A DNA stretch of 64,000 nucleotides, taken from the NCBI GenBank assembly GCA_008501735.1, contig QQUF01000045.1, forward strand, positions 5,735 through 69,734. The letters are read 5' to 3'. This document shows positions 7,277-24,834 of the stretch, one piece after another. A program made the translations under genes and the position numbers. This stretch comes from Calditrichota bacterium (GTDB lineage Bacteria; CLD3). Within the stretch, counting starts at the first letter, position 1. Each line of letters starts with the position of its first letter. The notes beneath the pieces were generated by a model, which searched no databases, was not told the origin of the DNA, and saw only the letters and a program-made list of their open reading frames with translations.

Positions 7277-8752
7277 ATGAAAAAAACAATTAAGTTTATA
7301 CTTATATCTTCTGCCTTTGGAGCATTTGCTTCTAATTCGTTTGCACAAAAAATTTATTGGACTGATACCAACTCTGATAAAATCCAAAGAGCTGATTTAG
7401 ATGGCTCAAATGTAGAGGATTTAGTTTCAACTGGCTTGATGAGTCCTGAAGGGTTGGCATTAGATTTAAATAGTTCCAAAATGTATTGGGTTGATTTTGG
7501 TACAAATAAAATTCAAAGAGCTAATTTAGATGGCTCGAATGTTGAAGATTTGATTTCAACTGGCCTTGTCGATCCTTTTGATTTAGCATTAGATTTAAAT
7601 AATTCTAAAATGTATTGGGTTGACGCTGGCACGAATAAAATGCAAAGAGCTAATTTAGATGGCTCGAATGTTGAAGATTTGATAACTAGTTTAATATACC
7701 CATATGGAATAACTTTAGATTTAGTAAATTCAAAAGTATATTGGACAGACGCAGCTCAAGCAAGAGTTTATAGAGCTAATTTGGATGGTTCTAATATTGA
7801 AATAATTATTCCAGGTGGCAGTTTCTTAAACCCAAAAGGTATTGCTTTGGATTTAATAAATTCTAAATTGTATTTTACTGATCAAGGTGACCCAAGAGTT
7901 GTTAGGTCTAATTTAGATGGTTCCAATATAGAAGTCATTTTTACAGATACAGAATTAAGCGAAAACTCTCACCCTCAAGAAATTGTTCTAGATATTGCAA
8001 ACTCTAAATTTTATTTTGCTCTTTCTGGAACAGATAAAATTTCTAAAGCAAATTTTGATGGAACCTCATTAGAAGATGTAATCATAGGAATTCCAGCTCC
8101 TCGTAGTTTAGCCTTATCCATAAGTGATAATCCACTTTCTGTTGAACTTTCCTACTTTAATGCACATCAAATTGGAAACTCAATCCAATTAAACTGGGCA
8201 ACAGGTTCTGAAAAAGATAATGCTGGTTTTAATATTTATAGAAAATTTGCTGATAATGATTTTTTTAAAATCTCTTCTTTTAGAACTAACATAAGTTTGA
8301 TAGGTCAAGGTAACACATCTTTCGATACTCAATATAAATTTACTGACTACTCGAATTTTAATAATAGTGAAATTTACACTTACTTAATTGCTGATGTAGA
8401 TGCAAAAGGAGCCGAAACAATACATAAAGAAATATCACAAAGTGTTTTATTTGAACTTAAGACACAAAAAGTCAATAGATTTGCATTAGAACAGAATTAC
8501 CCAAACCCTTTCAACCCGAAAACAACAATTTCTTATCAACTTGAAAAAGATTCAGAAGTAAACCTTAAAATTTACAATGAAAAGGGAAATTTTGTAAAAA
8601 GCTTATCAAATGGCTTCCAAAAACAAGGGTCTTACAAAGTTATTTGGGATGGCACCGACAATAATGGAAATCAAGTTTCAAATGGCACTTATTTTTATAA
8701 ACTTATAACTGAAACTTTCTCTCAATCAAATAAAATGATTTTATTAAAATAA
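7277..8752 (+). CDS. YWTD (LDL-receptor class B-like) beta-propeller protein with T9SS C-terminal sorting domain
   Basis: 491 aa; signal peptide; repeated blades of the form KIYWTD/KMYWVD...KIQRANLDGSNVEDL; conserved pre-CTD module LSVELSYF...SIQLNW...GFNIYRK; T9SS tail NYPNPFNPKTTISYQL...GTYFYKL. Confidence 0.8.
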   Translation: MKKTIKFILISSAFGAFASNSFAQKIYWTDTNSDKIQRADLDGSNVEDLVSTGLMSPEGLALDLNSSKMYWVDFGTNKIQRANLDGSNVEDLISTGLVDPFDLALDLNNSKMYWVDAGTNKMQRANLDGSNVEDLITSLIYPYGITLDLVNSKVYWTDAAQARVYRANLDGSNIEIIIPGGSFLNPKGIALDLINSKLYFTDQGDPRVVRSNLDGSNIEVIFTDTELSENSHPQEIVLDIANSKFYFALSGTDKISKANFDGTSLEDVIIGIPAPRSLALSISDNPLSVELSYFNAHQIGNSIQLNWATGSEKDNAGFNIYRKFADNDFFKISSFRTNISLIGQGNTSFDTQYKFTDYSNFNNSEIYTYLIADVDAKGAETIHKEISQSVLFELKTQKVNRFALEQNYPNPFNPKTTISYQLEKDSEVNLKIYNEKGNFVKSLSNGFQKQGSYKVIWDGTDNNGNQVSNGTYFYKLITETFSQSNKMILLK

Positions 8753-8764
8753 TCCAACAAACCA

Positions 8765-8793
8765 AACCTGAAAGGTATAAAACCTTTCAGGTT
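8765..8793. terminator. bidirectional intrinsic terminator hairpin between convergent genes
   Basis: Perfect inverted repeat aacctgaaaggt / acctttcaggtt (12-bp stem, loop ataaa) between the stops at 8752 (+) and 8800 (-). Confidence 0.5.
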
Positions 8794-8799
8794 TCAATT

Positions 8800-10017
8800 T
8801 TAATTCTTAATAAATTTTTTGCTAATCGAAATGTTTCCAAGTTTGAGTTTCAGGAAATAATTTCCAACAGCTAATCTTGAGATGTCAATTTCTTTGGCTT
8901 CGGCAAATGAAGTTGAAAGTACTTCTTGCCCCAAGATATTGAAGATTTTAATTTCCTCTACTCTACTTGCCACAAATTGATTCATCTTAAATCGAATTAC
9001 ACCACTTGAAGGATTTGGCGAAATTGAAATGCTGTTTGCGATTTCAGTTGCTTCGTCATTTGAGATGTGTTCATTAATCGAAGTTGTCATACAAATTGAA
9101 CTCGAATTTGAAACTCCACAACCTGCAAACGGAGGTCCAATTGTGAAAATCATATCAGGATTTCCACTCAAACATCTTGGAATTACAGGAAAATCTTCTG
9201 TTAAAACGTAATAGTAAATTCCGTTTGGATATTCAGGAGTAACTCCGAACCTTCCGTTACATTCGTCCAAAGAATTCGCCGTTCCGCTTACAAATTCGTA
9301 ATCTTGTGTGTAAGTTCCATCATAATTTCCGTCAGGAGCAGTAATTCCGTCTCCAGGGCGAGTTCCACTTTTAAGTTGATATTGAGAAGTTATTTCTACG
9401 ATTGCACTATTTGCATCGTTTGGGTCATCATAAACATATTTGTAATAAATCGGATAACCGTCTGCGGCATAACCAATTAATGGAGAATGACTTCCTGCTG
9501 TTGCACCAAAATCGGTTCCCAAAGTTGAAGGAAATCCGTGATAATGATATTTTCCATTTGGCTGAACGTGAGCATCGTTAAAATCCAAACCTAAGTTAAC
9601 ATTACTTGAAAGAGCGTTCAAATTCCAATCTGTGTTAAGTTGACCTGTGTTAGGGTTTTCAAAAAATTCTGCTGCAATTGGGTCAAATATCAATCCATTA
9701 GTAGCAATTCCAAATTCCCAAAATGCACAGCCTCCTGTCGTTCCTTCATCAAGAAAAGTCTTAGAAGTTGCCATTGTCGGAAAAGCACACATCGACTTTG
9801 TTAGTTGCTGAGCAGAAATTGCATTGGGGTTTCCGGGGTTTGGAAAAGTTCCTGTTGAGTGATCTGGAAGAGAATTTGAGTAAACAGTTCTAACAGCTCC
9901 GTCAGTTGTAAAACAAACTGCATTTGTGGTTGTATTACTGAAAATTGCATTTGAATCGCATTGAGAATAACCTTGCGAGGCTAACCCAATCAGAATTAAA
10001 AATGAAAGTTTTTTCAT
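8800..10017 (-). CDS. YHYH-domain secreted protein with T9SS C-terminal sorting domain
   Basis: 405 aa; signal peptide MKKLSFLILIGLASQGYSQ; GKYHYHGFP motif (YHYH domain); C-terminal tail ISISPNPSSGVIRFK...GNYFLKLKL resembling a T9SS CTD. Confidence 0.7.
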   Translation of the reverse strand: MKKLSFLILIGLASQGYSQCDSNAIFSNTTTNAVCFTTDGAVRTVYSNSLPDHSTGTFPNPGNPNAISAQQLTKSMCAFPTMATSKTFLDEGTTGGCAFWEFGIATNGLIFDPIAAEFFENPNTGQLNTDWNLNALSSNVNLGLDFNDAHVQPNGKYHYHGFPSTLGTDFGATAGSHSPLIGYAADGYPIYYKYVYDDPNDANSAIVEITSQYQLKSGTRPGDGITAPDGNYDGTYTQDYEFVSGTANSLDECNGRFGVTPEYPNGIYYYVLTEDFPVIPRCLSGNPDMIFTIGPPFAGCGVSNSSSICMTTSINEHISNDEATEIANSISISPNPSSGVIRFKMNQFVASRVEEIKIFNILGQEVLSTSFAEAKEIDISRLAVGNYFLKLKLGNISISKKFIKN

Positions 10018-10493
10018 TTTTCACTCCTAAACTTATGAATAATTTTGGTTCTTTTATCTGTCATTTTATAAGTCAAATCTTCATTCCTTAGATTAAACCT
10101 TATGATATTTGAATAATTTTCATCGTAAGTATTAAAACAAGTATTTTCAATTTTTAGCTCAATGATTTCCTTTACCAAAAGATTAGAATCAAAATTTAGA
10201 ATTAAATAATCGTTTTTTTCAACTATTGCCATATTTTTAAACTCAATTTTCACTTCACTTGCAAAACTAGCAAAATTGTTTTCTAAATATTTTTCAATAC
10301 ACCAAAACAACTCCGAAGAATCTGAACAAGAATCTTTAGTCTTTAGTTCTTCTTTTAAATCAAAAATTTTGAATTTTACTACAAGTTGTAACTTTTCGGC
10401 TTTTTCAGAAAAAGTAAAAAATGCTTTGTGACCAATGTGTGCGAAAGAATTACTCGTTAGAATAAATATTAAAATCGAAATAAATTTGCTCAA
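10014..10493 (-). CDS. hypothetical secreted protein (probable operon partner of the YHYH protein)
   Basis: 159 aa ORF overlapping the downstream gene by 4 nt; hydrophobic N-terminus; start codon appears to be TTG (no in-frame ATG near the 5' end), so the start is uncertain. Confidence 0.45.
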   Translation of the reverse strand: MSKFISILIFILTSNSFAHIGHKAFFTFSEKAEKLQLVVKFKIFDLKEELKTKDSCSDSSELFWCIEKYLENNFASFASEVKIEFKNMAIVEKNDYLILNFDSNLLVKEIIELKIENTCFNTYDENYSNIIRFNLRNEDLTYKMTDKRTKIIHKFRSEK

Positions 10494-10654
10494 TCTTTTA
10501 GCCTAAATTATTGAATTTAAAATTTTTACTTTTTGCACTTTAGTATTTTTATAAAACTTTTACAAGAAAATTTTCAATTGGATGTAATTTCAGTTTTTAA
10601 TTTGTGAAAACATAATTTCTGTTTTATGTTTTTCTACAAATTTTTAAAACAAAG

Positions 10655-13600
10655 ATGTTTATGCCTTACAAAATCATTTCAAAAATTGCATCTGGAACTT
10701 TCGGAACAGTTTACAAAGCTCAAGAATCAACTAAAGGTGAATTCTACGCACTAAAATTAATTCACGAAAATTACAAAACCCCTATAGAACTGAAACGAAT
10801 CAAACGAGGTTTTGAAACTGCACAAAAAGTCTCACACCCAAATTGTGTTAAAATGATTGAATGGTACGAGGAAAAAGACCAAATCGGTTTTGTGATGGAA
10901 TTTGTGGATTCCGTAGGGAACAAAAATCTTTGTTCCCTACAAAATAAAATCTCAAAAATCATTCAAATTTCAAATGGACTTGAAGCACTTCACTCAAGAG
11001 GAATAATTCACAGAGACCTAAAACCTTCAAATATTCTTGAGGATAAAAACGGACAAATTAAAATCACAGACTTTGATTTGGTTAAAACACAAGAGGCTTC
11101 AACAATTACAAATTCAAAATCGTTTTTGGGAACAGTAAAATTCTCTTCCCCCGAACAGTGCAAAGATTCAAGCAAAATTGACCACAGAAGCGACCTTTAC
11201 TCACTCGGAATAATTTTTTATAAACTTCTAACTAACAGATTTCCTTTTGATGGAGATTCCGTAACAAATATTATTCTTGGACATATAAGAACTCCTCTGA
11301 TTTCTCCGACTCAATTTAATCCCGAAATCCCAATTGAGATTGAAAATGTTGTCAAAAAATTATTAGCAAAAAATCGAAATGACAGGTTCAATTCGGCAAA
11401 AGAAGTAGTCGAAAAACTCCACGTATTTTTAGAAACTCCAACCGAAACTCAAATCCAAACTTCAAGTGATTTTCTTCTTTATCCAAGATTTATCGGAAGA
11501 GAAAATGATTTTAAGAAACTTGAAAAATCATTTTCAAAAACTTCGGAAAGAAAACCACAGTTTGTTTTGATTTCAGGCAAATCGGGAAGTGGTAAGACCC
11601 AACTTTGGAAAGAATTTAAAGAAGGATTTTCTGATAGAGAAACACTTTACCTTAACACAAAATGCAAGGAAAATTCCACAAGTCTTGAACCGTTAAGAGA
11701 AGTTTTATTTCAATGTTTAGAGATTTTGGAAGGATTTTCCGACAATGAAAAACTTCCCTATTTTGGGAATTTCTGTAGAGACTTGGAAATTATTTTACCG
11801 CAAATTTCACAACTTAGCTTTTTTGAAAAACTACCTCAAACCGTAAAACTTTCTCAAGAAGATGGAATTTTTAGATTGTTTGAGGCAGTAGTAACCTTGC
11901 TCAAAAATTTGCAGAAAGAAAAGATATTAGTTTTGTTTTTTGACGATTTACAATGGGCAGATTCGCAAACAACTAAATTTTTACACTTTCTACAAAACAA
12001 CTTTAAAAATGAAAAACTTTTGTTTGCAGGAACTTTAAGACCAAATTTTTCTAAATCCGAACTCAAAGAGAATTTTATAGAAAATTGCTCCCAAATAGAA
12101 CTTGAGTCTTTAACTCTTGGGCAAGTAAAAGAAGTGTTGACTTCAATGCTCGGACAAGTTGAACCTGTAGAAACCAATTTTGCACAGTTGATTTTGGAGA
12201 AGACGGAAGGAAATCCACTTTTTATTCAAGAAATTATGTTTCACTTATTGGAGCAGAAGAAAATTTATAAGAAAAAAAATAAGTGGGTTCTTTCTGAAAG
12301 TGAGATTTTGTCCGAAGAATTACCAAAAAGTATTCATTCGACAATTACAAAAAGAATGGAAGTTCTTCCAAAATCGGTTAAGAACATTTTGCAGATTGCT
12401 TCGGTAATTGGTAAAAGTTTTGATTTTGAATTACTCAAAATTCTTTTGCCAAATTTATTGGAAGTCGAAATTCAAAAAGCACTTTTAAAATCTTGTGAAG
12501 AAAATTATTTGACATCATTTTCAGAGAATTATGAATTTTATCACGACTCAATTCGTGAGACTTTAGAGAAACAAATTCAGTCAAAGAATAAAATTAAATT
12601 CCACAAACAAATTGCGAAATATCTCGAAAGAAAGTTTGACGGTGAAAACGAAGATTTGATTTTACAGCTTGCACATCATTTTTACGAAGCAAAATTAAAA
12701 CAAAAAGCAAAGAAGTATTGTTTGTCTGCAAGTAAGGTTGCTGAAAAAAAATACTCAATCTCAAATGCCATTGATTTTTTGACAAAAGCTATTGAATTAG
12801 AAGTAGATAAAGTCAAAATCATTTCTTTGACGATAAAAAAAGCACTTCTTATGAGAACTTTGGGTGTTCCTAACGAACCTTTGAAGATTGCAAAAAAGGC
12901 ACACAAGCTTTCATTAGAATTGAATGATGAGAATTTAATTGTAGATTCTCTTTTAGTAGTAGGCAACGAAGAAATCCAAAACTTTTTGTTTGAAGAAGGT
13001 TTTGCATCTTTAAATGAAGGATTGAAAATTTCTAAGAAGTTAGGAGATGAAACAAGACTTTCAAAAGCCTTGTTTAAGCTAGGTCAATATTACACAATGA
13101 AAGGTGATTTTGAAGAATCAAATTCTTATTGCCAAAAAGCACTAAAGTTAGCGATAAGTAATGGTTTAAAAGAGCTGGAAATGAAAGTCAATTTTAATAT
13201 TGCAGTTAATTTCCAAAATATTTGGGAATTTGAAAAAGCCTTAAAATACTTAGAAAATAGCATAGAACTTTCTAAAGAATTAAAATTTATCTCAGAATCA
13301 ATTTTTTATGAGACTTCTAAAGGAGTAATTTTAAGAAACTTAGGGAAACTCGAAGAATCTTATAACCTTTTTCTAAAAAATCTTACGAAAACCCAAAAAT
13401 ACGGATTTTATGAAGGAATAATTACAGCAACTTTCGGGATTAGCAATTATTTTTTCATAAAAGCCAATTACTCAAAATCAATTCCTTATTTGGAAAAAAG
13501 TATCTCTATTGCCGAAAAAATTAATGACCCAAAAGCCCTTTTGGAAGGCTTCCAAAACTATTCTTCAGTTCAATTTTTAATGGGAAATTTTGAAAAAAGT

Positions 13601-15706
13601 AATGAGTGCTTAAGAAAAGTTTGGATACTTGCAAATACTTCTAATACAAAAAAAGATTTTGCAACTTATTATAAAACAAAAGGCTTAAATCAATTTGCTC
13701 AAAAAGAGTTTGAAGCATCTGCTGAATCATTTTCCAAATCAATTCCTTTTAGAAATAATGACTATTCGGTCGGAGGAGTTTTGTTTCTCAAAGCAAATTC
13801 GCTTTTTGAACTTGGTGATTTGGAAAGTGCACAAAAAGAAAACAAACAAGCAAAAAACTTAGCAGAAAAAGTAAACGACCTTCAAACAATTACCAAATCC
13901 AAAATCCTTTCTCTAAAAATTGATTTTAACTTCGGTTTGCAAAAAAAAGCATTGGAAGGTTTGTTAGAAATTACTGAAACAGAAAAAAATGAGAAATTAC
14001 TTGCAACAGCACTTTTTGAGTTTTGTTCACTTTTTGCAAAAAATCAAAATCTTACTTTGCTCCCCGGCAAAAAAATAAATTTTGAAAGTTACAGAAAAAG
14101 AACACTTGAGCTTTTCCGAAAATTAATCCAAAATGACGAAAGTTTTGAGCTTAAAGAAAAACTAATCATTCTTGAAAACCTCAAAAATGAATCGGGAATC
14201 TTTCATTCAGGTTTCTTAAACTCACTTGTTCCTTTGATGGAACCCGAAACAATTTTGAGCGAATCAGTTGAATACCTAACTACGCAAACACAATCTAATA
14301 ATTGCTTTATTGTCCTTAGAAATAAAATAACAGGAAAATTTGAACCTTGTTTCTTTTCCAAAAATTACGAAGACAAAGAAATTGATTTTAGTCAAACGAT
14401 TTTGGAGGAAGCAATTAGAACCAATCAATCAATTTTGGTAGAAAATGCTTTGGATTCCGAGAAATTCAAAAGTAATGAAAGTATCATTGGTAAAATTTTC
14501 CTTTCTGTAATTTCCGTTCCATTTGGGAAAGATGGTGAAGCAATCGGAGCAATTTATTTAGATAGAACAAATCCTGAAAATGATGTTTACCAAAATTCCG
14601 ACTTAGAAAAGGTAAAAGGAATCGGTAAAGTTTTGTTGCCTGTAATCCAAAAACAAAACGAAAACCTAACTTTAAAAATCAAATCTCAAATTCAAGAATT
14701 AGGAATTTTTATCGGTAACAGCCCAAAAATGCAAAAAGTTTATGAAGAAATTGAAAATGCTGCAAACTACAATTTCCCAGTTTACATTTTTGGAGAAACA
14801 GGAACAGGAAAAGAACTTGTTGCAAATGCTTTACACAAACTTTCACCGCGAAGAAATGAGCCTTTTGTAGCGTTAAACTGTTCGGCAATTCCAAAAGACT
14901 TAGCAGAAAGCGAACTTTTCGGACACAAAAAAGGAGCTTTTACAGGAGCTACTTTTGATAAAAAAGGTGTTTTTGAATTAGCGGAAAATGGAACTCTTTT
15001 GCTCGATGAAGTTGGCGACCTTAGTTTGGACAACCAAGCAAAACTACTTAGAGTCATTCAAGAAAAAAAGCTAAGAGTAATCGGTTCTGAAAAAACCACG
15101 AAGGTAAATGCAAGAATCCTTGTTGCCACTCACAAGAACTTAGAAGAGGAAGTGCAAAAAGGGAATTTCCGTGAAGATTTGTTACACCGATTAGATGTTT
15201 TGAAAATATTAGTTCCACCACTAAGGGAAAGAATTGAAGACATTCCACTTTTGGCGTTTCACATTTTGGAAAAATTCAATTTGGAATCAGGTAAAAAAAA
15301 CAAAGGGCTTTCCAAAGATATTATTAAGGATTTTGAAAATTATAAATGGAAAGGAAATGTCAGAGAGTTAGAAAACAGAATTATCAAAGCCTCAGTCAAA
15401 AAGAAAAAAGATGTGCCTTTGACATTAAAAGATTTTGATTTTCTAAATCCCAAAAAGTCTGAAAAAGTAATTCAAATTACCCCTAACGAATCTCAAAATC
15501 TAAATTCTGAAAACCTAATTAATTTGGTTCACAAATTAGAAGGTGAAACAATTTATGAAAAATTAGCAACTGTCGAAAAAGCAATTATTACCCAAGCATT
15601 GAATGAGTACAACTGGAATAAAACAAAAGTATCCGCGAAGCTTGGAATTAGTAGAATGCAAATCAACAGAATAATTGCACGTTTTAATCTTGTGAAAAAA
15701 AGTTGA
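10655..15706 (+). CDS. giant multidomain regulator: Ser/Thr protein kinase - MalT/LAL-type P-loop NTPase - TPR - GAF - sigma-54 activator AAA+ - Fis-type HTH
   Basis: 1683 aa. Kinase motifs: ASGTFGTVYKA, YALKLI, HRDLKPSNIL, ITDFDL (DFG-like), SSPEQ (APE-like). Walker A GKSGSGKTQLW and Walker B LVLFFDDLQWAD (LAL-type). TPR-like central region. GAF-like (IGKIFLSVISVPF...GAIYLDR). Sigma-54 activator: GETGTGKELVANALH, ESELFGHKKGAFTGA (GAFTGA loop), LLDEVGDL, FREDLLHRLDV. C-terminal HTH KVSAKLGISRMQINRII. True start may be the second ATG at 10661 (MPYKII, matching the paralog). Confidence 0.85.
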   Translation: MFMPYKIISKIASGTFGTVYKAQESTKGEFYALKLIHENYKTPIELKRIKRGFETAQKVSHPNCVKMIEWYEEKDQIGFVMEFVDSVGNKNLCSLQNKISKIIQISNGLEALHSRGIIHRDLKPSNILEDKNGQIKITDFDLVKTQEASTITNSKSFLGTVKFSSPEQCKDSSKIDHRSDLYSLGIIFYKLLTNRFPFDGDSVTNIILGHIRTPLISPTQFNPEIPIEIENVVKKLLAKNRNDRFNSAKEVVEKLHVFLETPTETQIQTSSDFLLYPRFIGRENDFKKLEKSFSKTSERKPQFVLISGKSGSGKTQLWKEFKEGFSDRETLYLNTKCKENSTSLEPLREVLFQCLEILEGFSDNEKLPYFGNFCRDLEIILPQISQLSFFEKLPQTVKLSQEDGIFRLFEAVVTLLKNLQKEKILVLFFDDLQWADSQTTKFLHFLQNNFKNEKLLFAGTLRPNFSKSELKENFIENCSQIELESLTLGQVKEVLTSMLGQVEPVETNFAQLILEKTEGNPLFIQEIMFHLLEQKKIYKKKNKWVLSESEILSEELPKSIHSTITKRMEVLPKSVKNILQIASVIGKSFDFELLKILLPNLLEVEIQKALLKSCEENYLTSFSENYEFYHDSIRETLEKQIQSKNKIKFHKQIAKYLERKFDGENEDLILQLAHHFYEAKLKQKAKKYCLSASKVAEKKYSISNAIDFLTKAIELEVDKVKIISLTIKKALLMRTLGVPNEPLKIAKKAHKLSLELNDENLIVDSLLVVGNEEIQNFLFEEGFASLNEGLKISKKLGDETRLSKALFKLGQYYTMKGDFEESNSYCQKALKLAISNGLKELEMKVNFNIAVNFQNIWEFEKALKYLENSIELSKELKFISESIFYETSKGVILRNLGKLEESYNLFLKNLTKTQKYGFYEGIITATFGISNYFFIKANYSKSIPYLEKSISIAEKINDPKALLEGFQNYSSVQFLMGNFEKSNECLRKVWILANTSNTKKDFATYYKTKGLNQFAQKEFEASAESFSKSIPFRNNDYSVGGVLFLKANSLFELGDLESAQKENKQAKNLAEKVNDLQTITKSKILSLKIDFNFGLQKKALEGLLEITETEKNEKLLATALFEFCSLFAKNQNLTLLPGKKINFESYRKRTLELFRKLIQNDESFELKEKLIILENLKNESGIFHSGFLNSLVPLMEPETILSESVEYLTTQTQSNNCFIVLRNKITGKFEPCFFSKNYEDKEIDFSQTILEEAIRTNQSILVENALDSEKFKSNESIIGKIFLSVISVPFGKDGEAIGAIYLDRTNPENDVYQNSDLEKVKGIGKVLLPVIQKQNENLTLKIKSQIQELGIFIGNSPKMQKVYEEIENAANYNFPVYIFGETGTGKELVANALHKLSPRRNEPFVALNCSAIPKDLAESELFGHKKGAFTGATFDKKGVFELAENGTLLLDEVGDLSLDNQAKLLRVIQEKKLRVIGSEKTTKVNARILVATHKNLEEEVQKGNFREDLLHRLDVLKILVPPLRERIEDIPLLAFHILEKFNLESGKKNKGLSKDIIKDFENYKWKGNVRELENRIIKASVKKKKDVPLTLKDFDFLNPKKSEKVIQITPNESQNLNSENLINLVHKLEGETIYEKLATVEKAIITQALNEYNWNKTKVSAKLGISRMQINRIIARFNLVKKS
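10913..10940. repeat. perfect hairpin (10-bp stem, loop aaaatctt) embedded in the kinase-domain coding sequence
   Basis: gtagggaaca-aaaatctt-tgttccctac read directly from sequence; encodes VGNKNLCSL. Same position and same loop as the hairpin at 20074-20101 in the paralog, but a different stem sequence. Confidence 0.6.
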
Positions 15707-16570: not shown

Positions 16571-16586
16571 TGGCATTGAGTTTGGA
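16571..16586 (+). promoter_or_regulatory. weak sigma-54-like promoter candidate (TGGCA-N6-TTGGA) upstream of the 16640 cargo gene
   Basis: tggcattgagtttgga matches the -24 TGGCA element and part of the -12 element (TTGG instead of TTGC), about 55 nt upstream of the ATG. Near-match only. Confidence 0.2.
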
Positions 16587-16639: not shown

Positions 16640-18109
16640 ATGAAAAAACTTACAACTTCACTTATCACACTTAGCTTAGGGTTAACTTTAGCCTCAAATT
16701 CTTTCGCAATTAAAATGTATTGGAGTGATACTATAGATCATAAAATTCAACGAGCAAATTTAGATGGCTCAAGTGTAGAAGATTTAGTTTCAATTCCAGG
16801 TAATAGCGATATTTATGGAATAGCATTAGATATTAATAATTCAAAAATGTACTGGGCTGATTATGGAGAAGATAAAATCCAACGAGCGAACTTAGATGGT
16901 TCGAATGTAGAAGATTTGATAACAGTATTTGACTCTATATTTAACTTTGATCCTTTGGGAATTGCATTAGACTTAACAAATTCCAAAATATATTGGGTTA
17001 ATAATGGTGATAAGATAATGCGAGCAAATTTAGATGGCTCAAATGCGGAAGACATTGTCACCGGACTTAGTAGCGGAGTTGTAGATATAAATTTAGATAT
17101 TATAAATTCAAAAATTTATTGGAATGATGGTGGAACAGGTAAGATCCAAAAAGCAAATTTAGATGGCTCGAATGTGGAAGATGTCGTAACAGGAATAAAT
17201 TCTACTTATTTTATGGCTTTAGACCCAATAAATTCTAAAATATATTGGACAGGTTTTGATGCACACAAAATTGAACGAGCTAATTTAGATGGCTCAAATG
17301 TGGAAGATGTCGTAACAGGTTTAGATGAGCCGTTTGATATAACTCTTGATATTGCAAATTCCAAAATATATTGGACAGAAGCTGACAATAACAAAATCCA
17401 ACGTTGCAATTTTGACGGAACTAATGTTGAGGACCTTGTTACAGGATTATCGGAACCCGGTGCAATTGTTCTTGGTGTTCCTGACATTGCACTTTCAGTA
17501 GAACTTGCTTCTTTCTCCGCTCGCCAAATAGAAAACTCAATCCAACTCAATTGGTCAACAGCTTCCGAAACTGAAAACGAAGGTTTCAACATTTACAGAA
17601 AAATAAGTGGAAGTGAATTTGTCCAAATCGCTTCTTACAAAAGCCACAGAGAACTCAGAGGGCAAGGAAACACTTCTGTTGAGACAAATTACACTTTCAC
17701 TGACAATTCAAAATTACAAAACAATGAATTTTATACTTACGTAATTTCTGATGTTGAAACAAACGGACTTGAAACAAAGCACGAAGAAAATTCTCAAAGC
17801 GTCTTTTTTGAAATAAAAACTCAAGCTGTAAAAAGATTTGAGTTAGCTCAAAATTTCCCTAATCCTTTTAACCCAAGCACAACAATTTCTTACCAACTTG
17901 CCAAAGACACAAGAGTAAGTCTCAAGATTTACAACGAAAAAGGTGAATTTGTAAAAGAACTCACAAACGGCTTTCAGCACGAAGGTTCACACAATGCAGC
18001 TTGGGACGGAACAGATGAAAATGGAAAATCAGTTTCAAGCGGAACTTACTTCTACAAACTCCAAGCAGGAACTTTCACACAAACTAACAAAATGATTTTG
18101 TTGAAATAA
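16640..18109 (+). CDS. YWTD beta-propeller protein with T9SS C-terminal sorting domain (paralog)
   Basis: 489 aa; signal peptide MKKLTTSLITLSLGLTLASNSFA; repeated KMYWSD/KIYWVN...RANLDGSNVEDV blades; LSVELASFSARQIENSIQLNWSTASETENEGFNIYRK module; T9SS tail NFPNPFNPSTTISYQL...GTYFYKLQ. Confidence 0.8.
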   Translation: MKKLTTSLITLSLGLTLASNSFAIKMYWSDTIDHKIQRANLDGSSVEDLVSIPGNSDIYGIALDINNSKMYWADYGEDKIQRANLDGSNVEDLITVFDSIFNFDPLGIALDLTNSKIYWVNNGDKIMRANLDGSNAEDIVTGLSSGVVDINLDIINSKIYWNDGGTGKIQKANLDGSNVEDVVTGINSTYFMALDPINSKIYWTGFDAHKIERANLDGSNVEDVVTGLDEPFDITLDIANSKIYWTEADNNKIQRCNFDGTNVEDLVTGLSEPGAIVLGVPDIALSVELASFSARQIENSIQLNWSTASETENEGFNIYRKISGSEFVQIASYKSHRELRGQGNTSVETNYTFTDNSKLQNNEFYTYVISDVETNGLETKHEENSQSVFFEIKTQAVKRFELAQNFPNPFNPSTTISYQLAKDTRVSLKIYNEKGEFVKELTNGFQHEGSHNAAWDGTDENGKSVSSGTYFYKLQAGTFTQTNKMILLK

Positions 18110-18192: not shown

Positions 18193-19665
18193 ATGAAAAA
18201 ACTTACAACAACACTCTTAACACTTAGTTTAGGCTTAACCTTAGCTTCAACTTCTTTCGCAGATAAAATGTATTGGACGGATTATGGAACAAAAAAAATC
18301 CAACGTTCTGACTTAGATGGTTCAAATATCGAAGACCTTGTTACAACAGGGTTAGGTTTTCCTTTTGGAATGACCTTAGATTTAACTAATTCCAAAATGT
18401 ATTGGGCGGATGGTTCGACAAATAAAATCCAACGTTCTGACTTAGATGGTTCAAATATCGAAGACCTTGTTACAACAGGGTTGAGTTTTCCTGTAGGAAT
18501 CACCTTAGATTTGACTAATTCCAAAATTTATTGGTCAAACTACGGTGACTTAAATATTCAAAGGTCTAATTTAGATGGCACAAATGTGGAAGAAGTAGTT
18601 ACAAATCTGGATACTCCTCTTGGAATTGATTTAGATTTAACAAATTCCAAAATTTATTGGGTTGACACAGGAACGAATAGAATCCAAAGAGCAAACTTAG
18701 ACGGTTCAAGTGTAGAAAATTTAGTTACATCAGGGGTAGATAATTGCAGATTTATTAAGTTAGATATAGCTAGCTCAAAAATGTATTGGACTGATACTTC
18801 AGCAGATAAAATCCAAAGAGCTAATTTAGACGGTTCTAATGTGGAAGATTTAGTTACTACAGGATTAAGTTCCCCTGTAGGTTTAGCTTTAGATATTCCA
18901 AATTCGAAAATGTATTGGACTGATACTTCAGCAGATAAAATCCAAAGAGCAAACTTAGACGGTTCTAATGTGGAAGATTTAGTTACTACAGGACTAAGTT
19001 CTCCTTCTGCAATCGCACTTAATCTTACAGACGCACCACTTTCGGTAGAATTAAATTCTTTCTCTGCTCGTCAATTTGAAAATTCAATCCAACTTAATTG
19101 GTCAACAGCTTCCGAAACTGAAAACGAAGGTTTCAACATTTACAGAAAAACAAGTGGAAGTGAATTTGTCCAAATCGCTTCTTACAAAAGCCACAGAGAA
19201 CTCAAAGGACAAGGAAACACAACATTTGAGACAGGTTACACTTTCACTGACAATTCAAAATTACAAAACAGTGAATTTTACACTTACGTAATTTCTGATG
19301 TTGAAACAAACGGAGTTGAAACCAAGCACCAAGAAAATTCTCAAAGCATAAAATTTGTTTTTGATGAAGAAATTTCACAAACAAAACTTGACTACATTTT
19401 AGCTCAAAATTTCCCTAATCCTTTTAATCCAAGCACAACAATTAATTTTCAAGTTGCGAAAACCCAAGATGTTAGACTTGCAGTTTATAATTTAAACGGA
19501 AAACTTGTGAAGGAACTTGTCAACGAACCGAAAGCCAAAGGCTCACACAATGCAGTTTGGGACGGAACAGATGAAACCGGAAAATCTGTCTCAAGTGGAA
19601 CTTATTTCTACAAAATCTCGGCAGGCACTTTCACACAAACTAACAAAATGATTTTATTAAAATAA
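18193..19665 (+). CDS. YWTD beta-propeller protein with T9SS C-terminal sorting domain (paralog with near-identical internal blade repeats)
   Basis: 490 aa; same architecture as 16640..18109; 5' region including the ribosome-binding context and signal peptide is homologous to the preceding gene. Confidence 0.8.
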   Translation: MKKLTTTLLTLSLGLTLASTSFADKMYWTDYGTKKIQRSDLDGSNIEDLVTTGLGFPFGMTLDLTNSKMYWADGSTNKIQRSDLDGSNIEDLVTTGLSFPVGITLDLTNSKIYWSNYGDLNIQRSNLDGTNVEEVVTNLDTPLGIDLDLTNSKIYWVDTGTNRIQRANLDGSSVENLVTSGVDNCRFIKLDIASSKMYWTDTSADKIQRANLDGSNVEDLVTTGLSSPVGLALDIPNSKMYWTDTSADKIQRANLDGSNVEDLVTTGLSSPSAIALNLTDAPLSVELNSFSARQFENSIQLNWSTASETENEGFNIYRKTSGSEFVQIASYKSHRELKGQGNTTFETGYTFTDNSKLQNSEFYTYVISDVETNGVETKHQENSQSIKFVFDEEISQTKLDYILAQNFPNPFNPSTTINFQVAKTQDVRLAVYNLNGKLVKELVNEPKAKGSHNAVWDGTDETGKSVSSGTYFYKISAGTFTQTNKMILLK

Positions 19666-19685
19666 ATTTGCTCTCTTACTAGAAT

Positions 19686-19720
19686 AGCCTGACAATTAAA
19701 ATTGTCGGGCTTTTTTGTTT
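19686..19720 (+). terminator. intrinsic terminator (hairpin plus T-run) after the 18193 gene
   Basis: agcctgacaatt-aaa-attgtcgggc stem (one G-U wobble) followed by ttttttgttttg. Confidence 0.6.
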
Positions 19721-19776
19721 TGTGAAATCTAGATTTCTGTTTTAAGTTTTCTAACCCAATTAAACAGAGATACAGA

Positions 19777-22700
19777 ATGCCTTACAAAATCATACGTAAA
19801 ATCGCCTCAGGAACTTTCGGCACAGTTTACAAAGTCCAGGAAACAACTAACAGTGAATTCTACGCCTTAAAATTAATCCACGAAAATTACAAAAGCCCTA
19901 AAGAACTGAAAAGAATCAAACGTGGTTTTGAGTCAGCTCAAATAGTATCACACCCAAATTGTGTAAAAATGATTGAATGGTATGAGGAAAAAGACCAAAT
20001 TGGTTTTGTGATGGAATTTGTAGATTCCGTAGAGACGCAAAATCTCGCGTATAGTGAAAAGAATAATTCCCTTGTAGAGACGCAAAATCTTGCGTCTCTA
20101 CAAAATAAAATTTCAAAAATAATTCAAATTGCAAATGGGCTTGAAGCACTTCACTCAACAGGAATCATTCACAGAGATTTGAAACCTGCAAACATTCTTG
20201 AAACCAAAGATGGTCAAATTAAAATCACTGATTTTGATTTAGTGAAACTTGACGATTCCTCCACTCTCACAGCTTCGGGAGCTTTCCTTGGAACTGCAAA
20301 ATATTCTTCTCCTGAACAATGCCAAAACTCTGCTAAAATTGATTTCCGTTCTGACCTTTACTCACTTGGAGTTCTTTTCTACCAATTAGTTTGTGGCAGA
20401 GTTCCTTTTGAAGGAGATTCATTGGCAGAAATTGCACTTGGTCACATTCGTACTCCACTAATTTCTCCAAAACAATTTGTTCCTGATTTACCAGAAGTTT
20501 TGAATACAGTAATTGCCAAACTCCTAAAAAAAAATCCAAAAGATAGATTTCAATCTGCTCAAGAAGTCTCAAAGATTTTAGATACTTTTTTGAAAGAAGG
20601 AAAAGTTGAAAACTTGGAAACTTTCGGTGATTTTCTTTTAACTCCGGGTTTCGTTGGACGAGGAAAAGAATTTTCAGAGTTGAGCAAAATCTTTTCAGAA
20701 ACAACTAACAAGCTGAAAACAATTCTAATTAGTGGTGAACAAGGAGTTGGAAAAACAAAATTGTGGAAAGAATTCAGACTTGGTTTACCAAAAAACTCAA
20801 CTTTAGTGTTTGAGACAAAGTGCAGACAAAATGGAAACACTTTTGAACCACTTCAAACAATTCTTGCAAAAGCATTAGAACAAATCGAGAAACTTTCTGG
20901 CAAAGAACAAGCTGAAAAAATTGGACGATTTGGAAAAGACCTTTGTAAGATTTTTCCACAACTTGAACAAAAATTTTTTTTTAAACATTTACTGGAAATT
21001 CCAGCTCTTGAGGGTATTGAATCAGAGCTTAGACTTTTTGAAGCATTTACAAATTTCCTAAATAATATTCAAAAAGAAAAACAGACTTTAGTTTTCTTTT
21101 TCGACGACTTACAATGGATTGATGAACTTAGTCTAAAGTTTCTTGGTTATTTAACAAGGAGTTTATCTAATAATTCAATTTTAGTTTTGGGAACTATTAG
21201 AAAAGAACAAATTGAAAATGTATTAGAAGAAATTGATGATTCTAAGATTCTCACTCTCGAAAATTTTGAATTAGAAGAAGTCCGTGAATTTCTCACAAAA
21301 ATGTTTGGCAAAGCTGACCCTGTAAACACAAGATTTTGTGAAGAAATTTTGAAACGCACAGGTGGAAATGTTTTGTTTGTTCAAGAGCTAATTTTTCACT
21401 TGTTAGAAACAAAGGAATTGAATAAAAGTGAGGGTGATTGGGATTTAGGTGAAGAATCTTTCACAAAACTAAAACTACCAAAATCAATTCAAAGTGTTGT
21501 TGGTGAACGTCTAAATTTCTTACCTAAAAATTTACTAAAGTTACTCGAAGTTGGTGCACTTCTCGGAAAGTTTTTTACAACGAAAGTAGTGGCAGAAGTC
21601 CTTTCTTTAGAAGAAAATGAAGTTGAAAGTAAATTAGCAAACTCGACTTTTGAAGGTATTTTAGAAAAATCGGAAAGTAATATTTTTGAATTCGTAAACG
21701 ACTCTTTTAGAGAAAGCCTTTCAAATTCGCTAAAACCAAATACCAAAAAGTCAATTCACAGAAAGATAGCAGTTTACTTAGAGAAGCGTTTTAATGAATT
21801 TGAAATTTTGGAAGAACTTGCTAATCATTACTTTGAAGCTGGTGTGAAGAAAAAAACTTTTAATTACTGTTTGAAAGCTGGAGTTTCTTTAAAAGAGGTT
21901 TATGACTATGCGAAAGCAGAAACATTTATTTCAAATGCAATTACTGCAATTGAAGCGAGAAATATTTCCGAAAGAATAAATATTTCTAACCTAAAGGCTG
22001 AATGCTTAGAAAAGTTGGGTGATTTTGAACAAGCCGAAAAAATTTATTCCCATAATTTAAAATTGGCATTTGATTCAAATTCTGAAAATGAAATAATAGC
22101 TGATATTTATTTTGCTTTGGGTAGAATTAATTCTGAATTATTTAATATTGAAAATACTCAAAAATATTTTAAACTATCTTTAAACCTTTACATCAAATTA
22201 AGAGATTTTAAATTTATAATTTTAATTCATAAAGAATTGTCTCGTTCATTTATTTATCAAAATAAATTTTCTGAAGCCCAAAAATATTTAGATTTAGCAT
22301 TAGAAGTTGCTGAAAGTAATAAAATTTATGATGAAGTGATTAGTTGTTATACTTACCAATGTACTATTCTTGGAAGTGTCGGAAAATTCGATGAGGTTTT
22401 GATTTATGCAAAAAAGATTAATGATTTTGAAGAAAAGCAAGGAAGTTCAAGGAAAGATTTTACGGGTTTAATTTTTCTCGGTTGGGTTTATAAAAACTTA
22501 ACAAATTTTGTAAAAGCATCTTTTTATTTTGAAAAAGCTGTTAAAAATTTAGAGAAGAACAGTTATTCTGATACATATTTAAGAGCGTTAAACGGTGTTA
22601 GCCTTTGTAATTTTGAATTAGGAAATTTTGAAAAAGCAATTGAATTCTCTTTGAAAACTATCAGACAAGCAATCCTAATTAAAGATTTTAGACAAGTAGG

Positions 22701-24834
22701 AAATTCTTACAACGACATTGCATTATTTTATACAACCTACGGAAACTTTGATGAAGCCTCTAAAATGCTTGACAAAAGCATTGAAGTATCAAGAAAAATT
22801 AATGATGAATTTCAAATTGCAAATTCATTTTATCTTTTGGGAGAGATTGAATTTTTTAAAAGCAATTTTTTAGAAGCGATTTCAAATTATGAAGAATCTG
22901 TTAAAATTTATAGTAAAATTGAAATGGAGTTCAAAGCTCCAATTTTATTATACAATCTTTCTAAGTCAAATTATAAACTCAGAAACTACCCAAAAGCATT
23001 AGAAAATATATCTAAAAGCCAAGAACTTGCCCAAAAATTTGAAAATGAGAATGTAATTTTCAATTGTCAAATTTTGAAAAATAAAATTGATTTTATGTTG
23101 GGAAATAAAGAGCAAGCAATTCAAAATATTTACTCTTTTATTCAATCTGAAAATGATGAAAGAAAATCAGCAATTTTAAGAATTTCATTCTGTAATCTTT
23201 TTGCAAAAGACCGAAGTTTGGGAATTTTGATTTCAGAGGATTTTGATTTTCAAGAATTTCTTTTAGAAACAAAAAGTTTAACTGAAAAGGTTCTGAAAGA
23301 GAAGTTTAATTATGAAATTTCTAAGGACTTAGAAGAACTGAAACTTCTTGAAAAACCTTCTATTAGCTTGGATTTAGATTTAATTTCCTCGTTTGTGAAA
23401 TGGATTGAACCTTCAAATCTTTTTAGCGAACTTTTAGAATTTTTGAAAAAACAAACAAATGCAACTTCGGCAATTCTTATTTTACAGAATCCAATTACCA
23501 AAAAATTTGAAATTGCAAGTTCAACGAATGAAATTTCAAATGAGGATTTAGATTTTAGCAAAGGTATTTTTGAAGAATCAATAAAAAATCATAAACCAAT
23601 TCTAATTGAGAATGCTTTAGAGAATCCAAATTTTAGTTCAAACCAAAGTGTTGTCGGTAAGATTTTCCTTTCGGTTTTAGTTGTCCCAGTAAGTCTAAAT
23701 AAAAAAGTTATTGGAGCAATTTACGTTGAACGCTCAAAATTGGAATTAGAAAAATTTAGAATCCCTGATTTGCAACAAGTCGAAAGAATTGCAAAACTTA
23801 TTTCACCGATTTTGCAAAAACAAAACGAAAACAAAGTTCTTAAAACTGAATCAGAAGTTAAAAAATTAGGAATCTTCATTGGTAACAGCCTAAAAATGCA
23901 AAAATTATATCAGCAAATCCAAAATGCTGCGACAGTTGATTACACAACTTACATTTACGGCGAAACCGGAACAGGGAAAGAATTAGTTGCAACTGCTCTG
24001 CACAAATTAAGTCTAAGAAAAGACAAACCTTTTGTAGTAATTAATTGCTCGGCAATTCCGAAAGATTTAGCTGAAAGTGAACTTTTCGGACATTCAAAAG
24101 GTGCGTTTAGTGGAGCAATTTCTGATAAAACAGGAAAATTTGAACTTGCAAACGAAGGAACACTTTTCCTTGATGAAGTCGCAGAATTATCTTTGGAAAT
24201 TCAAGCAAAACTGCTCCGAGCAATTCAACAAAAGGAAATTTGGCGAGTCGGTGGAAACAAAGGAATAAAAGTAAACATAAAAATCATTGTTGCAACTCAC
24301 AAAAATCTTAGCGAGGAAGTTCAGAAAGGTAATTTCCGTGAAGACCTTTTTCACAGATTAGATGTTTTGAAAATCGAAGTTCCTCCTTTGAGGGAAAGGT
24401 TAGAAGACATTCCACTTTTAGCAAATTCAATTTTAGAAAAAGTCAGTAAGGAGTTGAACAAAAAATTCTTGGGTTTCTCACAAAGTGGAATTAAATCTCT
24501 TTTTGAACAAAGATGGAAGGGGAATGTCAGAGAATTAGAAAATGTGATTACAAAATCAGTAATAAATCTTCAAATTGAAAAGTCATTAAGCGAAAATGAT
24601 TTATTCCCAAATCAAATTACCAAACGAAATTCAGATGAACCTTTAGAAGTAATCCTTAATGGAAAATCTTTTGATGAGAAATTAGAAAACTTGGGTAAAA
24701 AAATCTTGTTAACAAACTTAGAGTCCACAAATTGGAACAAACGGCAATCGGCAAGAGAATTAGGAATTAGTAGAAATAGGCTCAAACGTTTGATTTCTAA
24801 GTATGAGCTTGTTGAACCACATTCTTCACTTTAG
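19777..24834 (+). CDS. giant multidomain regulator, paralog 2: Ser/Thr kinase - LAL-type NTPase - TPR - GAF - sigma-54 activator - HTH
   Basis: 1685 aa; kinase motifs (ASGTFGTVYKV, HRDLKPANIL, ITDFDL, SSPEQ); Walker A GEQGVGKTKLW and Walker B LVFFFDDLQWID; TPR-like region; GAF-like (VGKIFLSVLVVPV...GAIYVER); sigma-54 activator (GETGTGKELVATALH, ESELFGHSKGAFSGA, FLDEVAEL, FREDLFHRLDV); C-terminal HTH (RQSARELGISRNRLKRLI). Confidence 0.85.
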   Translation: MPYKIIRKIASGTFGTVYKVQETTNSEFYALKLIHENYKSPKELKRIKRGFESAQIVSHPNCVKMIEWYEEKDQIGFVMEFVDSVETQNLAYSEKNNSLVETQNLASLQNKISKIIQIANGLEALHSTGIIHRDLKPANILETKDGQIKITDFDLVKLDDSSTLTASGAFLGTAKYSSPEQCQNSAKIDFRSDLYSLGVLFYQLVCGRVPFEGDSLAEIALGHIRTPLISPKQFVPDLPEVLNTVIAKLLKKNPKDRFQSAQEVSKILDTFLKEGKVENLETFGDFLLTPGFVGRGKEFSELSKIFSETTNKLKTILISGEQGVGKTKLWKEFRLGLPKNSTLVFETKCRQNGNTFEPLQTILAKALEQIEKLSGKEQAEKIGRFGKDLCKIFPQLEQKFFFKHLLEIPALEGIESELRLFEAFTNFLNNIQKEKQTLVFFFDDLQWIDELSLKFLGYLTRSLSNNSILVLGTIRKEQIENVLEEIDDSKILTLENFELEEVREFLTKMFGKADPVNTRFCEEILKRTGGNVLFVQELIFHLLETKELNKSEGDWDLGEESFTKLKLPKSIQSVVGERLNFLPKNLLKLLEVGALLGKFFTTKVVAEVLSLEENEVESKLANSTFEGILEKSESNIFEFVNDSFRESLSNSLKPNTKKSIHRKIAVYLEKRFNEFEILEELANHYFEAGVKKKTFNYCLKAGVSLKEVYDYAKAETFISNAITAIEARNISERINISNLKAECLEKLGDFEQAEKIYSHNLKLAFDSNSENEIIADIYFALGRINSELFNIENTQKYFKLSLNLYIKLRDFKFIILIHKELSRSFIYQNKFSEAQKYLDLALEVAESNKIYDEVISCYTYQCTILGSVGKFDEVLIYAKKINDFEEKQGSSRKDFTGLIFLGWVYKNLTNFVKASFYFEKAVKNLEKNSYSDTYLRALNGVSLCNFELGNFEKAIEFSLKTIRQAILIKDFRQVGNSYNDIALFYTTYGNFDEASKMLDKSIEVSRKINDEFQIANSFYLLGEIEFFKSNFLEAISNYEESVKIYSKIEMEFKAPILLYNLSKSNYKLRNYPKALENISKSQELAQKFENENVIFNCQILKNKIDFMLGNKEQAIQNIYSFIQSENDERKSAILRISFCNLFAKDRSLGILISEDFDFQEFLLETKSLTEKVLKEKFNYEISKDLEELKLLEKPSISLDLDLISSFVKWIEPSNLFSELLEFLKKQTNATSAILILQNPITKKFEIASSTNEISNEDLDFSKGIFEESIKNHKPILIENALENPNFSSNQSVVGKIFLSVLVVPVSLNKKVIGAIYVERSKLELEKFRIPDLQQVERIAKLISPILQKQNENKVLKTESEVKKLGIFIGNSLKMQKLYQQIQNAATVDYTTYIYGETGTGKELVATALHKLSLRKDKPFVVINCSAIPKDLAESELFGHSKGAFSGAISDKTGKFELANEGTLFLDEVAELSLEIQAKLLRAIQQKEIWRVGGNKGIKVNIKIIVATHKNLSEEVQKGNFREDLFHRLDVLKIEVPPLRERLEDIPLLANSILEKVSKELNKKFLGFSQSGIKSLFEQRWKGNVRELENVITKSVINLQIEKSLSENDLFPNQITKRNSDEPLEVILNGKSFDEKLENLGKKILLTNLESTNWNKRQSARELGISRNRLKRLISKYELVEPHSSL
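20074..20101. repeat. perfect hairpin (10-bp stem, loop aaaatctt) embedded in the kinase-domain coding sequence, preceded by a partial direct copy at 20029-20050
   Basis: gtagagacgc-aaaatctt-gcgtctctac read directly; a 22-nt near-copy gtagagacgcaaaatctcgcgt lies 45 nt upstream; together they encode an insertion (VETQNLAYSEKNNSLVETQNLASL) relative to paralog 1. Confidence 0.6.

Follow-up and report, generated by a model that had tools for sequence, protein, structure and literature searches.

In a 64-kb stretch of DNA from a metagenome-assembled genome (MAG) of an uncultured member of the Calditrichota, referred to here as the window, genes for giant sigma-54 regulators stand among genes for YWTD-type beta-propeller proteins that carry a type IX secretion system (T9SS) sorting domain, and the arrangement of regulators, palindromes and promoter-like motifs makes it reasonably likely that a regulator acts through enhancer sites behind its own gene on a sigma-54 promoter serving the adjoining cargo genes. 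There are four propeller cargo paralogs in the window (propA, propB, propC, and propD), two complete regulators, reg1 (GenBank KAA3597870, DWQ06_12280) and reg2 (KAA3597873, DWQ06_12295), both on a contig of 359 kb, and a third, reg3, that is truncated by the window end. An earlier note had described the region as a repeated cassette, suggested to have duplicated as a whole, in which propeller genes are followed by a giant regulator that might control them. The five open reading frames (ORFs) it named are all present at the coordinates it gave, and its proposal of a dedicated circuit gains from recurrent adjacency and a conserved promoter, but the polarity is reversed, the putative promoters lying 3′ of a regulator and 5′ of the next cargo. 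The principal genes and elements are the following.

7277-8752, plus strand: propA, six-bladed YWTD propeller, beta-sandwich and T9SS C-terminal domain (CTD)
8764-8794, both strands: bidirectional terminator-like hairpin between propA and a convergent YHYH-CTD gene
10602-10626, plus strand: predicted promoter/operator block of reg1, TTGTGAAA-N6-TTTCTGTTTTA
10655-15706, plus strand: reg1, giant regulator (Pfam, motifs)
16150-16312, plus strand: conserved noncoding block of ~160 nt, 80% identical to positions 4631-4795 of locus L095 from another MAG
16323-16491, plus strand: candidate enhancer (upstream activating sequence) for reg1, three TGTAACA-N3-TGTTnCA (repeat family, ortholog half-sites)
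16570-16585, plus strand: predicted sigma-54-type promoter of propB-propC (-24 GG, -13 G)
16640-18109, plus strand: propB, YWTD propeller T9SS cargo, first gene of a unit putatively controlled by reg1
18193-19665, plus strand: propC, tandem paralog of propB (67.5% amino acid identity), second gene of the propB-propC unit
19686-19711, plus strand: intrinsic terminator, 11-bp stem and T-run, ending propB-propC before reg2
19720-19744, plus strand: predicted promoter/operator block of reg2, same motif as before reg1
19777-24834, plus strand: reg2, with the same six modules as reg1 and 43% identical to it
24899-24962: reg2 terminator, a perfect palindrome (33-nt arms) that has an A-run at its left and a T-run at its right side
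24907-24954: hairpin of the reg2 terminator, 20-bp stem
25031-25046, plus strand: predicted sigma-54-type promoter, serving propD and the FG-GAP cargo (regular expression)
25138-26613, plus strand: propD, fourth YWTD propeller T9SS cargo
26695-28944, plus strand: FG-GAP_2 (seven copies) T9SS cargo directly after propD (Pfam)
60005-64000, minus strand: reg3, STAND–TPR–sigma-54 regulator paralog, N terminus beyond the window end, ~30% identical to reg1

Behind reg1, three 17-bp palindromes of the form TGTAACA-N3-TGTTnCA start at 16327, 16407, and 16475 (spacing of 80 and 68 bp) and stand 95-245 bp upstream of the -24 element of the motif TTGGCAT-TGAGT-TTGG (TTGGCATTGAGTTTG / TTGGCATTGAGTTTGG), which begins at 16570, 55 nt ahead of the propB ATG. 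Enhancer sites upstream of a -24/-12 promoter and beside the activator gene are the classical layout of an enhancer-dependent promoter. The pattern TGTAACA-N4-GTT occurs four times in the window against 0.25 expected, a count reached in none of 100 shuffles, and three of these sites fall within 165 bp of each other in the gap behind reg1. Palindromes and promoter recur in another genome, where locus L096 (GCA_030429225.1) carries a reg1 ortholog (59% amino acid identity) followed by a gap of 260 bp and two propeller genes: the half-sites are the same as in the window (TTGTTAC-N6-GTAACAA and CGTTACA-N4-TGTAACA), and the gap is otherwise only ~50-60% identical to that of the window, but the 16-nt promoter core TTTGGCATTGAGTTTG is identical and lies inside a 19-nt stretch of full conservation. 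The near-match to a sigma-54 promoter at 16571-16586, the only one that had been noticed upstream of the cargo genes, is thus very probably a real promoter, retained over 16 nt in the ortholog, and for reg1 there is no need to suppose, as had been suggested, that the targets are to be sought elsewhere. A scan of the window for TGGCAC-N5-TTGC with two mismatches allowed is uninformative alone, because it returns 40 matches where 32 are expected; both matches in same-strand gaps upstream of cargo sit behind reg1 and reg2.

Behind reg2, a second such motif, TTGGCAC-AGAAT-TAGT (TTGGCACAGAATTAGT / TTGGCACAGAATTAG), starts at 25031, past the reg2 terminator and 92 nt short of the propD ATG, and is followed by a leader hairpin (25079-25108). 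No terminator is found between propD and the FG-GAP_2 cargo. The 33-nt-arm palindrome behind reg2 is unusually long for a terminator, a third copy of its arm (75% identical) lies 52 nt upstream at 24849-24868, and the palindrome might double as a reg2 binding site.

When the expression TGGCA[CT]N5T[TA]G was run on both strands of the window and the related loci (390 kb), 12 matches were obtained, half of them within the 3.75 kb directly behind giant regulators and on the same strand (window 16571 and 25032; L082 12136; L085 13237; L086 5861; L095 5103); in the loci outside the pattern definition there are 4 matches against 0.08 expected (P = 1.4e-6). In the five gaps with a protein-coding gene downstream, TGGCAY-N5-T(T/A)G stands 55-92 nt from the next start codon. 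Six further family members were readable with their flanks, and their enhancer-like palindromes differ between regulator paralogs. In L095, from the same MAG as L096, a regulator 45% identical to reg2 is followed by TTAGTC-N5-GACTAA repeats (three perfect copies and one degenerate), by TTGGCACAGAGGTTG, by an ORF for a 48-amino-acid membrane peptide, and by a propeller that shares 68% identity with propC. In L086, GTTTCCTTATnnGGAAAC occurs three times ahead of the canonical TTGGCACTCGTTTTGC, a perfect TGGCAC-N5-TTGC, and a 2019-amino-acid T9SS cargo comes next; in L082, two TGTAACA-N4-TGTTACG copies are succeeded by TTGGCACAATGATTG and a 78-amino-acid ORF. In L085, TGGTAAAACACCA repeats precede TTGGCACAAAGTTAG, which fits the expression, and ~150 nt without an ORF that are closed by a terminator; TGGCGATTCGCCA repeats stand in the syntenic L081, which also has a terminated ORF-free stretch of ~150 nt but only the variant CGGCACGAAAATAGC, which falls outside the expression. 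The ~150-nt stretch behind these two regulators (P0013 and P0014) is a candidate sigma-54-dependent small RNA.

The boundaries of the units point the same way. The 25-nt motif TTGTGAAA-N6-TTTCTGTTTTA occurs in the window solely before reg1 and reg2, and among 95 loci only before a reg2 ortholog (L094, 11506-11530), where it again follows a terminator; it sits in a block of ~40 nt that is conserved far better than the proteins themselves, which are 43% identical, and its restriction to these positions marks it as a promoter/operator that the regulator genes have in common, perhaps of the Fibrobacterota-Chlorobiota-Bacteroidota (FCB) type with a -33 TTTG and a -7 TAnnTTTG. The terminator after propC together with this motif indicates that the regulators are transcription units separate from the upstream cargo. 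Terminator-like hairpins follow propA, propC, and reg2; the earlier note had each unit end in a terminator, but a hairpin scan found none directly after reg1. The reg1 start is probably the ATG at 10661 rather than 10655, because the longest ORF begins MFMPYK, compared with MPYKII/MPFKII in reg2 and L094.

Gene order elsewhere could be read from GenBank accessions, which run sequentially along contigs and were calibrated in the window (ending in 867 for propA, 870 for reg1, 871-872 for propB-propC, 873 for reg2, and 874 for propD). On a 19.7-kb contig of the same MAG, KAA3597650-655 comprise a regulator (650), a propeller (651), one further gene (652), a propeller (653), a regulator (654), and a propeller (655). 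Another MAG contig has a regulator (KAA3604631) followed by two propellers (631-633), as does a 9-kb contig starting with KAA3605227 (227-229). The reg1-like P0002 (KAA3600048) adjoins the propeller KAA3600047, whose C terminus is missing at the contig start; that truncation places the propeller on the minus strand and, provided that P0002 has the same orientation, downstream of the regulator. In all, regulator and propeller adjoin in the two window units and at ~8 further loci in at least three assemblies (two of them lie on another contig of the window's own MAG, four on other annotated MAG contigs, and the remaining two are L095 and L096), and on one contig a regulator fragment stands at least seven genes from any propeller. 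Judged from this accession order, the linkage is conserved, and it is the regulator that recurrently comes first.

Co-occurrence across related genomes is therefore borne out as linkage; co-divergence is not. In the regulator tree, reg1 groups with P0002 of another MAG (55% identity) and reg2 groups with P0005 from another contig of the same MAG and with P0003 of another MAG, and because each has closer relatives in other MAGs, the split between them is, on this tree, an old one that no recent duplication on the spot accounts for. The neighbor-joining tree of the propeller domains has a star-like shape and is not congruent with that of the regulators. Neither the idea that cargo and regulator diverged in parallel nor that of a unit duplicated as a whole finds support in these separate old subclades.

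The two complete regulators, 43% identical paralogs as had been described, share one module order in Pfam: a Hanks-type Ser/Thr kinase (Pkinase, 171 bits in reg1 and 168 in reg2), a STAND nucleoside triphosphatase (NTPase; AAA_16, 89 and 96 bits; cutoff, 32.6), tetratricopeptide repeats (TPR_12 above its cutoff and TPR_MalT below), GAF, Sigma54_activat (235 bits in both), and a Fis-type helix-turn-helix (HTH_8, 36.8 and 26.1 bits; cutoff, 22). Their earlier description as sigma-54 regulators fits the AAA+ module and the helix-turn-helix but leaves out the kinase, STAND, TPR, and GAF modules. The motifs of an enhancer-binding protein (EBP) are intact (GETGTGKE Walker A, LLLDEV/LFLDEV, and the RERxED arginine finger), and so is the sigma-54 contact loop, GAFTGA at 1427 in reg1 and GAFSGA at 1442 in reg2, of which G, F, G, and A are invariant across 12 family members. 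The STAND P-loops read GKSGSGKT and GEQGVGKT, and the kinase keeps its ALK lysine, HRDLKPxN, and SPE. The closest solved structures are the AAA+ domains of LuxO, NifA, and NtrC1 and the kinase domains of StkP and PknB. None of the curated NCBIfam equivalogs fits the protein as a whole: the scores for the NifA equivalog TIGR01817 (344.5 and 341.1 bits) lie under its cutoff of 528.85, that for the NorR equivalog (341) is far below 476, and TIGR03903, a kinase/cyclase fusion of thiazole/oxazole-modified microcin (TOMM) systems, matches residues 279-713 at a score under the equivalog cutoff. The kinase–STAND–TPR–GAF–EBP architecture itself is common in databases: its hits number over 2,000 and come from Calditrichota, Gemmatimonadota, Acidobacteriota, Cloacimonadota, and Myxococcota. 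We found no paper describing it in the literature searched. A profile search with the regulator alignment (sigma-54 AAA+ seeds) returned 80 loci, nearly all generic EBPs and none from Calditrichota.

The cargo proteins are likewise as first described, YWTD paralogs with an Ldl_recept_b match (103-146 bits in propA, propB, and propC, which are 52-68% identical to each other) and a T9SS CTD, but the inventory had missed propD and the FG-GAP_2 cargo after reg2 as well as reg3. With propD included the range is 48-68%; propD is the most divergent (41-43% identity in the propeller domain; Ldl_recept_b, 44.8 bits; cutoff, 21). The propeller consensus has six regular YWTD repeats, PF18962 (T9SS CTD) scores 28-33 bits in all four, and TIGR04183, scored on propB (33.5), propD (28.4), and the FG-GAP cargo (31.4) only, exceeds its cutoff of 23 in each. 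The N termini (MKK, a hydrophobic stretch, A(S/N)xxFA) are signal peptide-like as judged by eye. In an AlphaFold2 model of propB (pLDDT, 81.5), residues 1-23, the putative signal peptide, are disordered, and a propeller of six blades (25-278) is followed by a beta-sandwich (287-390) and a CTD sandwich (414-487). Metazoan YWTD propellers dominate its Foldseek matches in the PDB, and the best compact ones (LRP4, ApoER2, LRP6-E1, LDLR, and nidogen) superpose at 1.7-2.1 Å over ~265 residues with 22-30% identity. YWTD propellers of the LRP4/LDLR class are ligand-binding modules, so the cargo is most likely a surface-displayed binding protein. We also considered an enzymatic propeller (Vgb_lyase, SGL, or arylesterase Pfam models) and set it aside, since the matches are weak, with Vgb_lyase (in propC) and SGL (in propA and propC) alone exceeding their cutoffs, and ligand-binding folds dominate. 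A metagenome scan with propB found six distant propeller relatives, none with an adjoining giant regulator.

The window would then be a tandem array of units, each running from a regulator through its terminator or 3′ region and two or three palindromic enhancers to a sigma-54 (-24/-12) promoter and one to three cargo genes, and the order of cargo and then regulator, on which attention had first fallen, would be a by-product of such regulator-to-cargo units standing in tandem. Every regulator would be transcribed from its own conserved housekeeping-type promoter. A cytoplasmic signal, sensed as in MalT and PknK at the TPR/STAND part and perhaps at GAF too, would drive nucleotide-dependent oligomerization, to which the kinase may add a check by autophosphorylation or cross-phosphorylation. 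The AAA+ ring would form on the enhancers behind its own gene and remodel the sigma-54 holoenzyme at the adjoining promoter, and the cargo would leave through Sec and the T9SS to be displayed as a ligand-binding surface propeller. The paralog-specific palindromes would allow parallel circuits to run without cross talk. A broader reading, which we hold as tentative, is that the giants make up a widespread class of one-protein signaling computers, whose sigma-54 AAA+ motor would be gated by a eukaryote-like kinase and a STAND switch, and that in the Calditrichota this class has expanded into orthogonal, hard-wired circuits, with a private palindrome code directly behind each regulator gene and private sets of LDL receptor-like surface propellers as output; in relatives, a giant T9SS protein, a small RNA, or a small membrane peptide would take the place of the propellers. 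If true, this would amount to a modular system for condition-specific remodeling of the cell surface.

Three other explanations have to be weighed against such a circuit. It is improbable, in our estimate, that cargo genes and the regulator downstream form a duplicated cassette in which the regulator acts back on the upstream cargo or is cotranscribed with it. The string propB-propC-reg2 does lie on one strand, and in L094 two propellers without an upstream regulator precede a reg2 ortholog; however, propA and reg1 are parted by two genes on the opposite strand and by the bidirectional terminator, a terminator and a regulator promoter stand between the last propeller and the reg2-type regulator in both the window and L094, and neither a sigma-54 motif nor a repeat precedes propA or the L094 and L087 propellers. 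All six sigma-54-like promoters are 3′ of a regulator, and the old separate clades of reg1 and reg2 do not suit a duplicated cassette. Adjacency might instead mean little, if both families have expanded in a paralog-rich, recombination-prone region where other activators serve the promoters and the giants act at a distance or as kinases. T9SS cargo paralogs crowd this region, gene conversion is evident there (C-terminal modules 94.6% identical), many family members have no adjoining target, and the genomes carry many other EBPs, three of them consecutive in L084. We nevertheless regard this as unlikely, because the order of regulator and then propeller recurs in both window units and at the further loci, because the same layout is found behind relatives with nonpropeller targets, and because the palindromes are specific to each paralog, yet their half-sites are kept between reg1 orthologs, which is what would be expected if each adjoining helix-turn-helix reads its own sites.

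We likewise give little weight to the view that the TGGCA motifs and palindromes are terminator or 3′ untranslated region elements, or the sites of some other factor, with the cargo expressed from ordinary promoters. The gaps do contain other conserved elements without an explanation (the 160-nt block, the 33-nt-arm palindrome, and an inverted repeat pair), and the -12 element is mostly noncanonical; against this stand the recurrence of the motif 55-92 nt from the start codon in five coding gaps, the perfect TGGCAC-N5-TTGC in L086, and the fact that the motif always lies behind a protein with an intact sigma-54 contact loop. The circuit from regulator through enhancer and sigma-54 promoter to cargo that we favor meets difficulties of its own. 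The -12 element departs from the canonical form in five of the six promoters (TTGG, TAGT, TTGT, TAGA, and TTGT; TTGC only in L086); the Calditrichota may have a lineage-specific -12 preference. No convincing reg2 enhancer was found, only AT-rich palindromes and terminator arms. No sigma-54-like motif lies in the 118-nt gap from reg3 to ftsH, adjoining the distant full-length family members in L003, L006, and L037, or adjacent in L084. The propA, L087, and L094 propellers have neither a regulator nor a sigma-54 motif upstream and sit behind ordinary-looking AT-rich leaders, and the two stand-alone propellers of L094, followed by the reg2 ortholog, reproduce the order in the earlier note; L094, whose downstream side is cut off by the end of the contig, is the sole locus with cargo first and no regulator ahead of it. 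Finally, DFD replaces the kinase DFG motif invariantly across the family, which makes kinase activity uncertain.

Sigma-54 activators beside their own target promoters are textbook, and the C-terminal third of the giants resembles EBPs of the NifA/FhlA type in its GAF–AAA+–HTH order, intact Walker A and B motifs, GAFTGA loop, arginine finger, and Fis-type helix-turn-helix, as it does in having a predicted target promoter with palindromes upstream of it beside the regulator gene. The giants differ from these EBPs in an additional ~1,200 N-terminal residues (kinase, STAND NTPase, and TPR) and in putative targets that are secreted surface proteins, not metabolic operons. A STAND NTPase with a TPR/MalT-like sensor, fused to a Ser/Thr kinase, is what they share with PknK of Mycobacterium tuberculosis and MalT. 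MalT has a LuxR-type helix-turn-helix and works with sigma-70, and to our knowledge neither PknK nor MalT occurs with a sigma-54 AAA+ module; the giants, in contrast, fuse STAND to a second oligomerizing ATPase, the AAA+ ring of the EBP. STAND proteins such as MalT and PknK are switched on by inducer- and nucleotide-dependent multimerization (PMC4381067). The STAND–TPR core is also common to the TIGR03903 fusions and to GGDEF–AAA_16–TPR proteins, one of which is encoded near the regulator in L082, but their output is a cyclase whereas that of the giants is a sigma-54 activator.

On the output side, the cargo model superposes on the six-bladed YWTD propellers of metazoan LRP4, LRP6, ApoER2, LDLR, and nidogen, but the cargo lacks epidermal growth factor modules and has instead a putative Sec signal peptide, a beta-sandwich stalk, and a T9SS CTD. 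The L085/L081 gap, with palindromes, a sigma-54-like promoter, and ~150 terminated nucleotides without an ORF, is laid out like the LuxO-Qrr system, in which an EBP drives a small RNA from an adjacent sigma-54 promoter; unlike Qrr, the candidate here, which lies outside the window, rests on two closely related sequences. In the literature searched we found no description of an activator gated by a Hanks-type kinase and a STAND NTPase, and nothing relevant on links between sigma-54 and the T9SS. Enhancer-dependent local regulation is the known part of the proposed system, and the kinase–STAND–EBP fusion regulator and the output of T9SS-secreted, LDL receptor-like propellers are the new parts. 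Sigma-54 control would here be tied to T9SS cargo outside the Bacteroidota, and LDL receptor-type propellers as putatively regulated bacterial surface proteins offer a starting point for a ligand search. It is rare for an uncultured phylum that a regulator, its predicted sites, the promoter, and the target can all be read from sequence and are conserved between genomes; with all four defined, the circuit can be rebuilt in a heterologous host.

Three further genes of the window surround propA and complete the cargo cluster.

4826-7240, plus strand: T9SS cargo with a cyclophilin peptidyl-prolyl isomerase domain, an FG-GAP propeller, and a CTD (Pfam, sequence, regular expression)
8800-10017, minus strand: YHYH-CTD gene, T9SS cargo (Pfam)
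10014-10493, minus strand: DUF6702 gene

The cargo gene at 4826-7240 is probably cotranscribed with propA, from which a 37-nt gap separates it, and neither inspection of the sequence nor the regular expression revealed a sigma-54 motif upstream of it. Over their last 627 nt, propD and the FG-GAP_2 cargo are 94.6% identical, whereas their N-terminal domains are unrelated; the shared stalk-plus-CTD module (25957-26613 and 28288-28944; 92% protein identity) points to recent homogenization by gene conversion or module exchange between neighboring cargos. No component of the T9SS machinery (PorK/L/M/N, SprA, and PorU/V) is encoded in the window, no rpoN was seen among the window ORFs scanned, and the whole window gave zero Rfam matches at the gathering threshold.

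In the gap between reg1 and propB, the conserved block at 16150-16312 lies between the regulator stop codon and the enhancer sites, with a fold z-score of -2.5 and five compensatory pairs in a two-sequence consensus fold. Its reading as a small ORF was rejected, as, in comparison with L095, indels of 1, 3, and 4 nt disrupt every frame. A perfect 15-nt inverted repeat, CTGATGTTACGCAAA / TTTGCGTAACATCAG (15831-15845 and 16116-16130), flanks 270 nt of the same gap and contains the GTTACG half-site of the reg1-type enhancer; it is missing from the orthologous 260-bp gap of L096 and may be an insertion resembling a miniature inverted-repeat transposable element. Among the relatives, the 48-amino-acid peptide of L095 (5159-5305) has a single hydrophobic helix, the 78-amino-acid protein of L082 (12213-12449) has a signal peptide-like N terminus and is the sole target of its putative promoter, and the stretches behind regulators P0013 and P0014 (L085, 13064-13422; L081, 15064-15458) contain conserved blocks and one covarying hairpin.

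Elsewhere in the window, a gene for a cyclic nucleotide-binding–GAF–histidine kinase (2181-3818, minus strand) lies a few kilobases upstream of the cargo cluster. Three tandem paralogs of ~1,300 amino acids with Sortilin/Vps10-type propeller repeats, fn3, and MAM domains (29589-41377, minus strand) are preceded by a TPMT-like methyltransferase gene (41423-42031), and upstream of this string of genes there is a TGGCAT-N5-CTGC motif at 42227-42241 on the minus strand.

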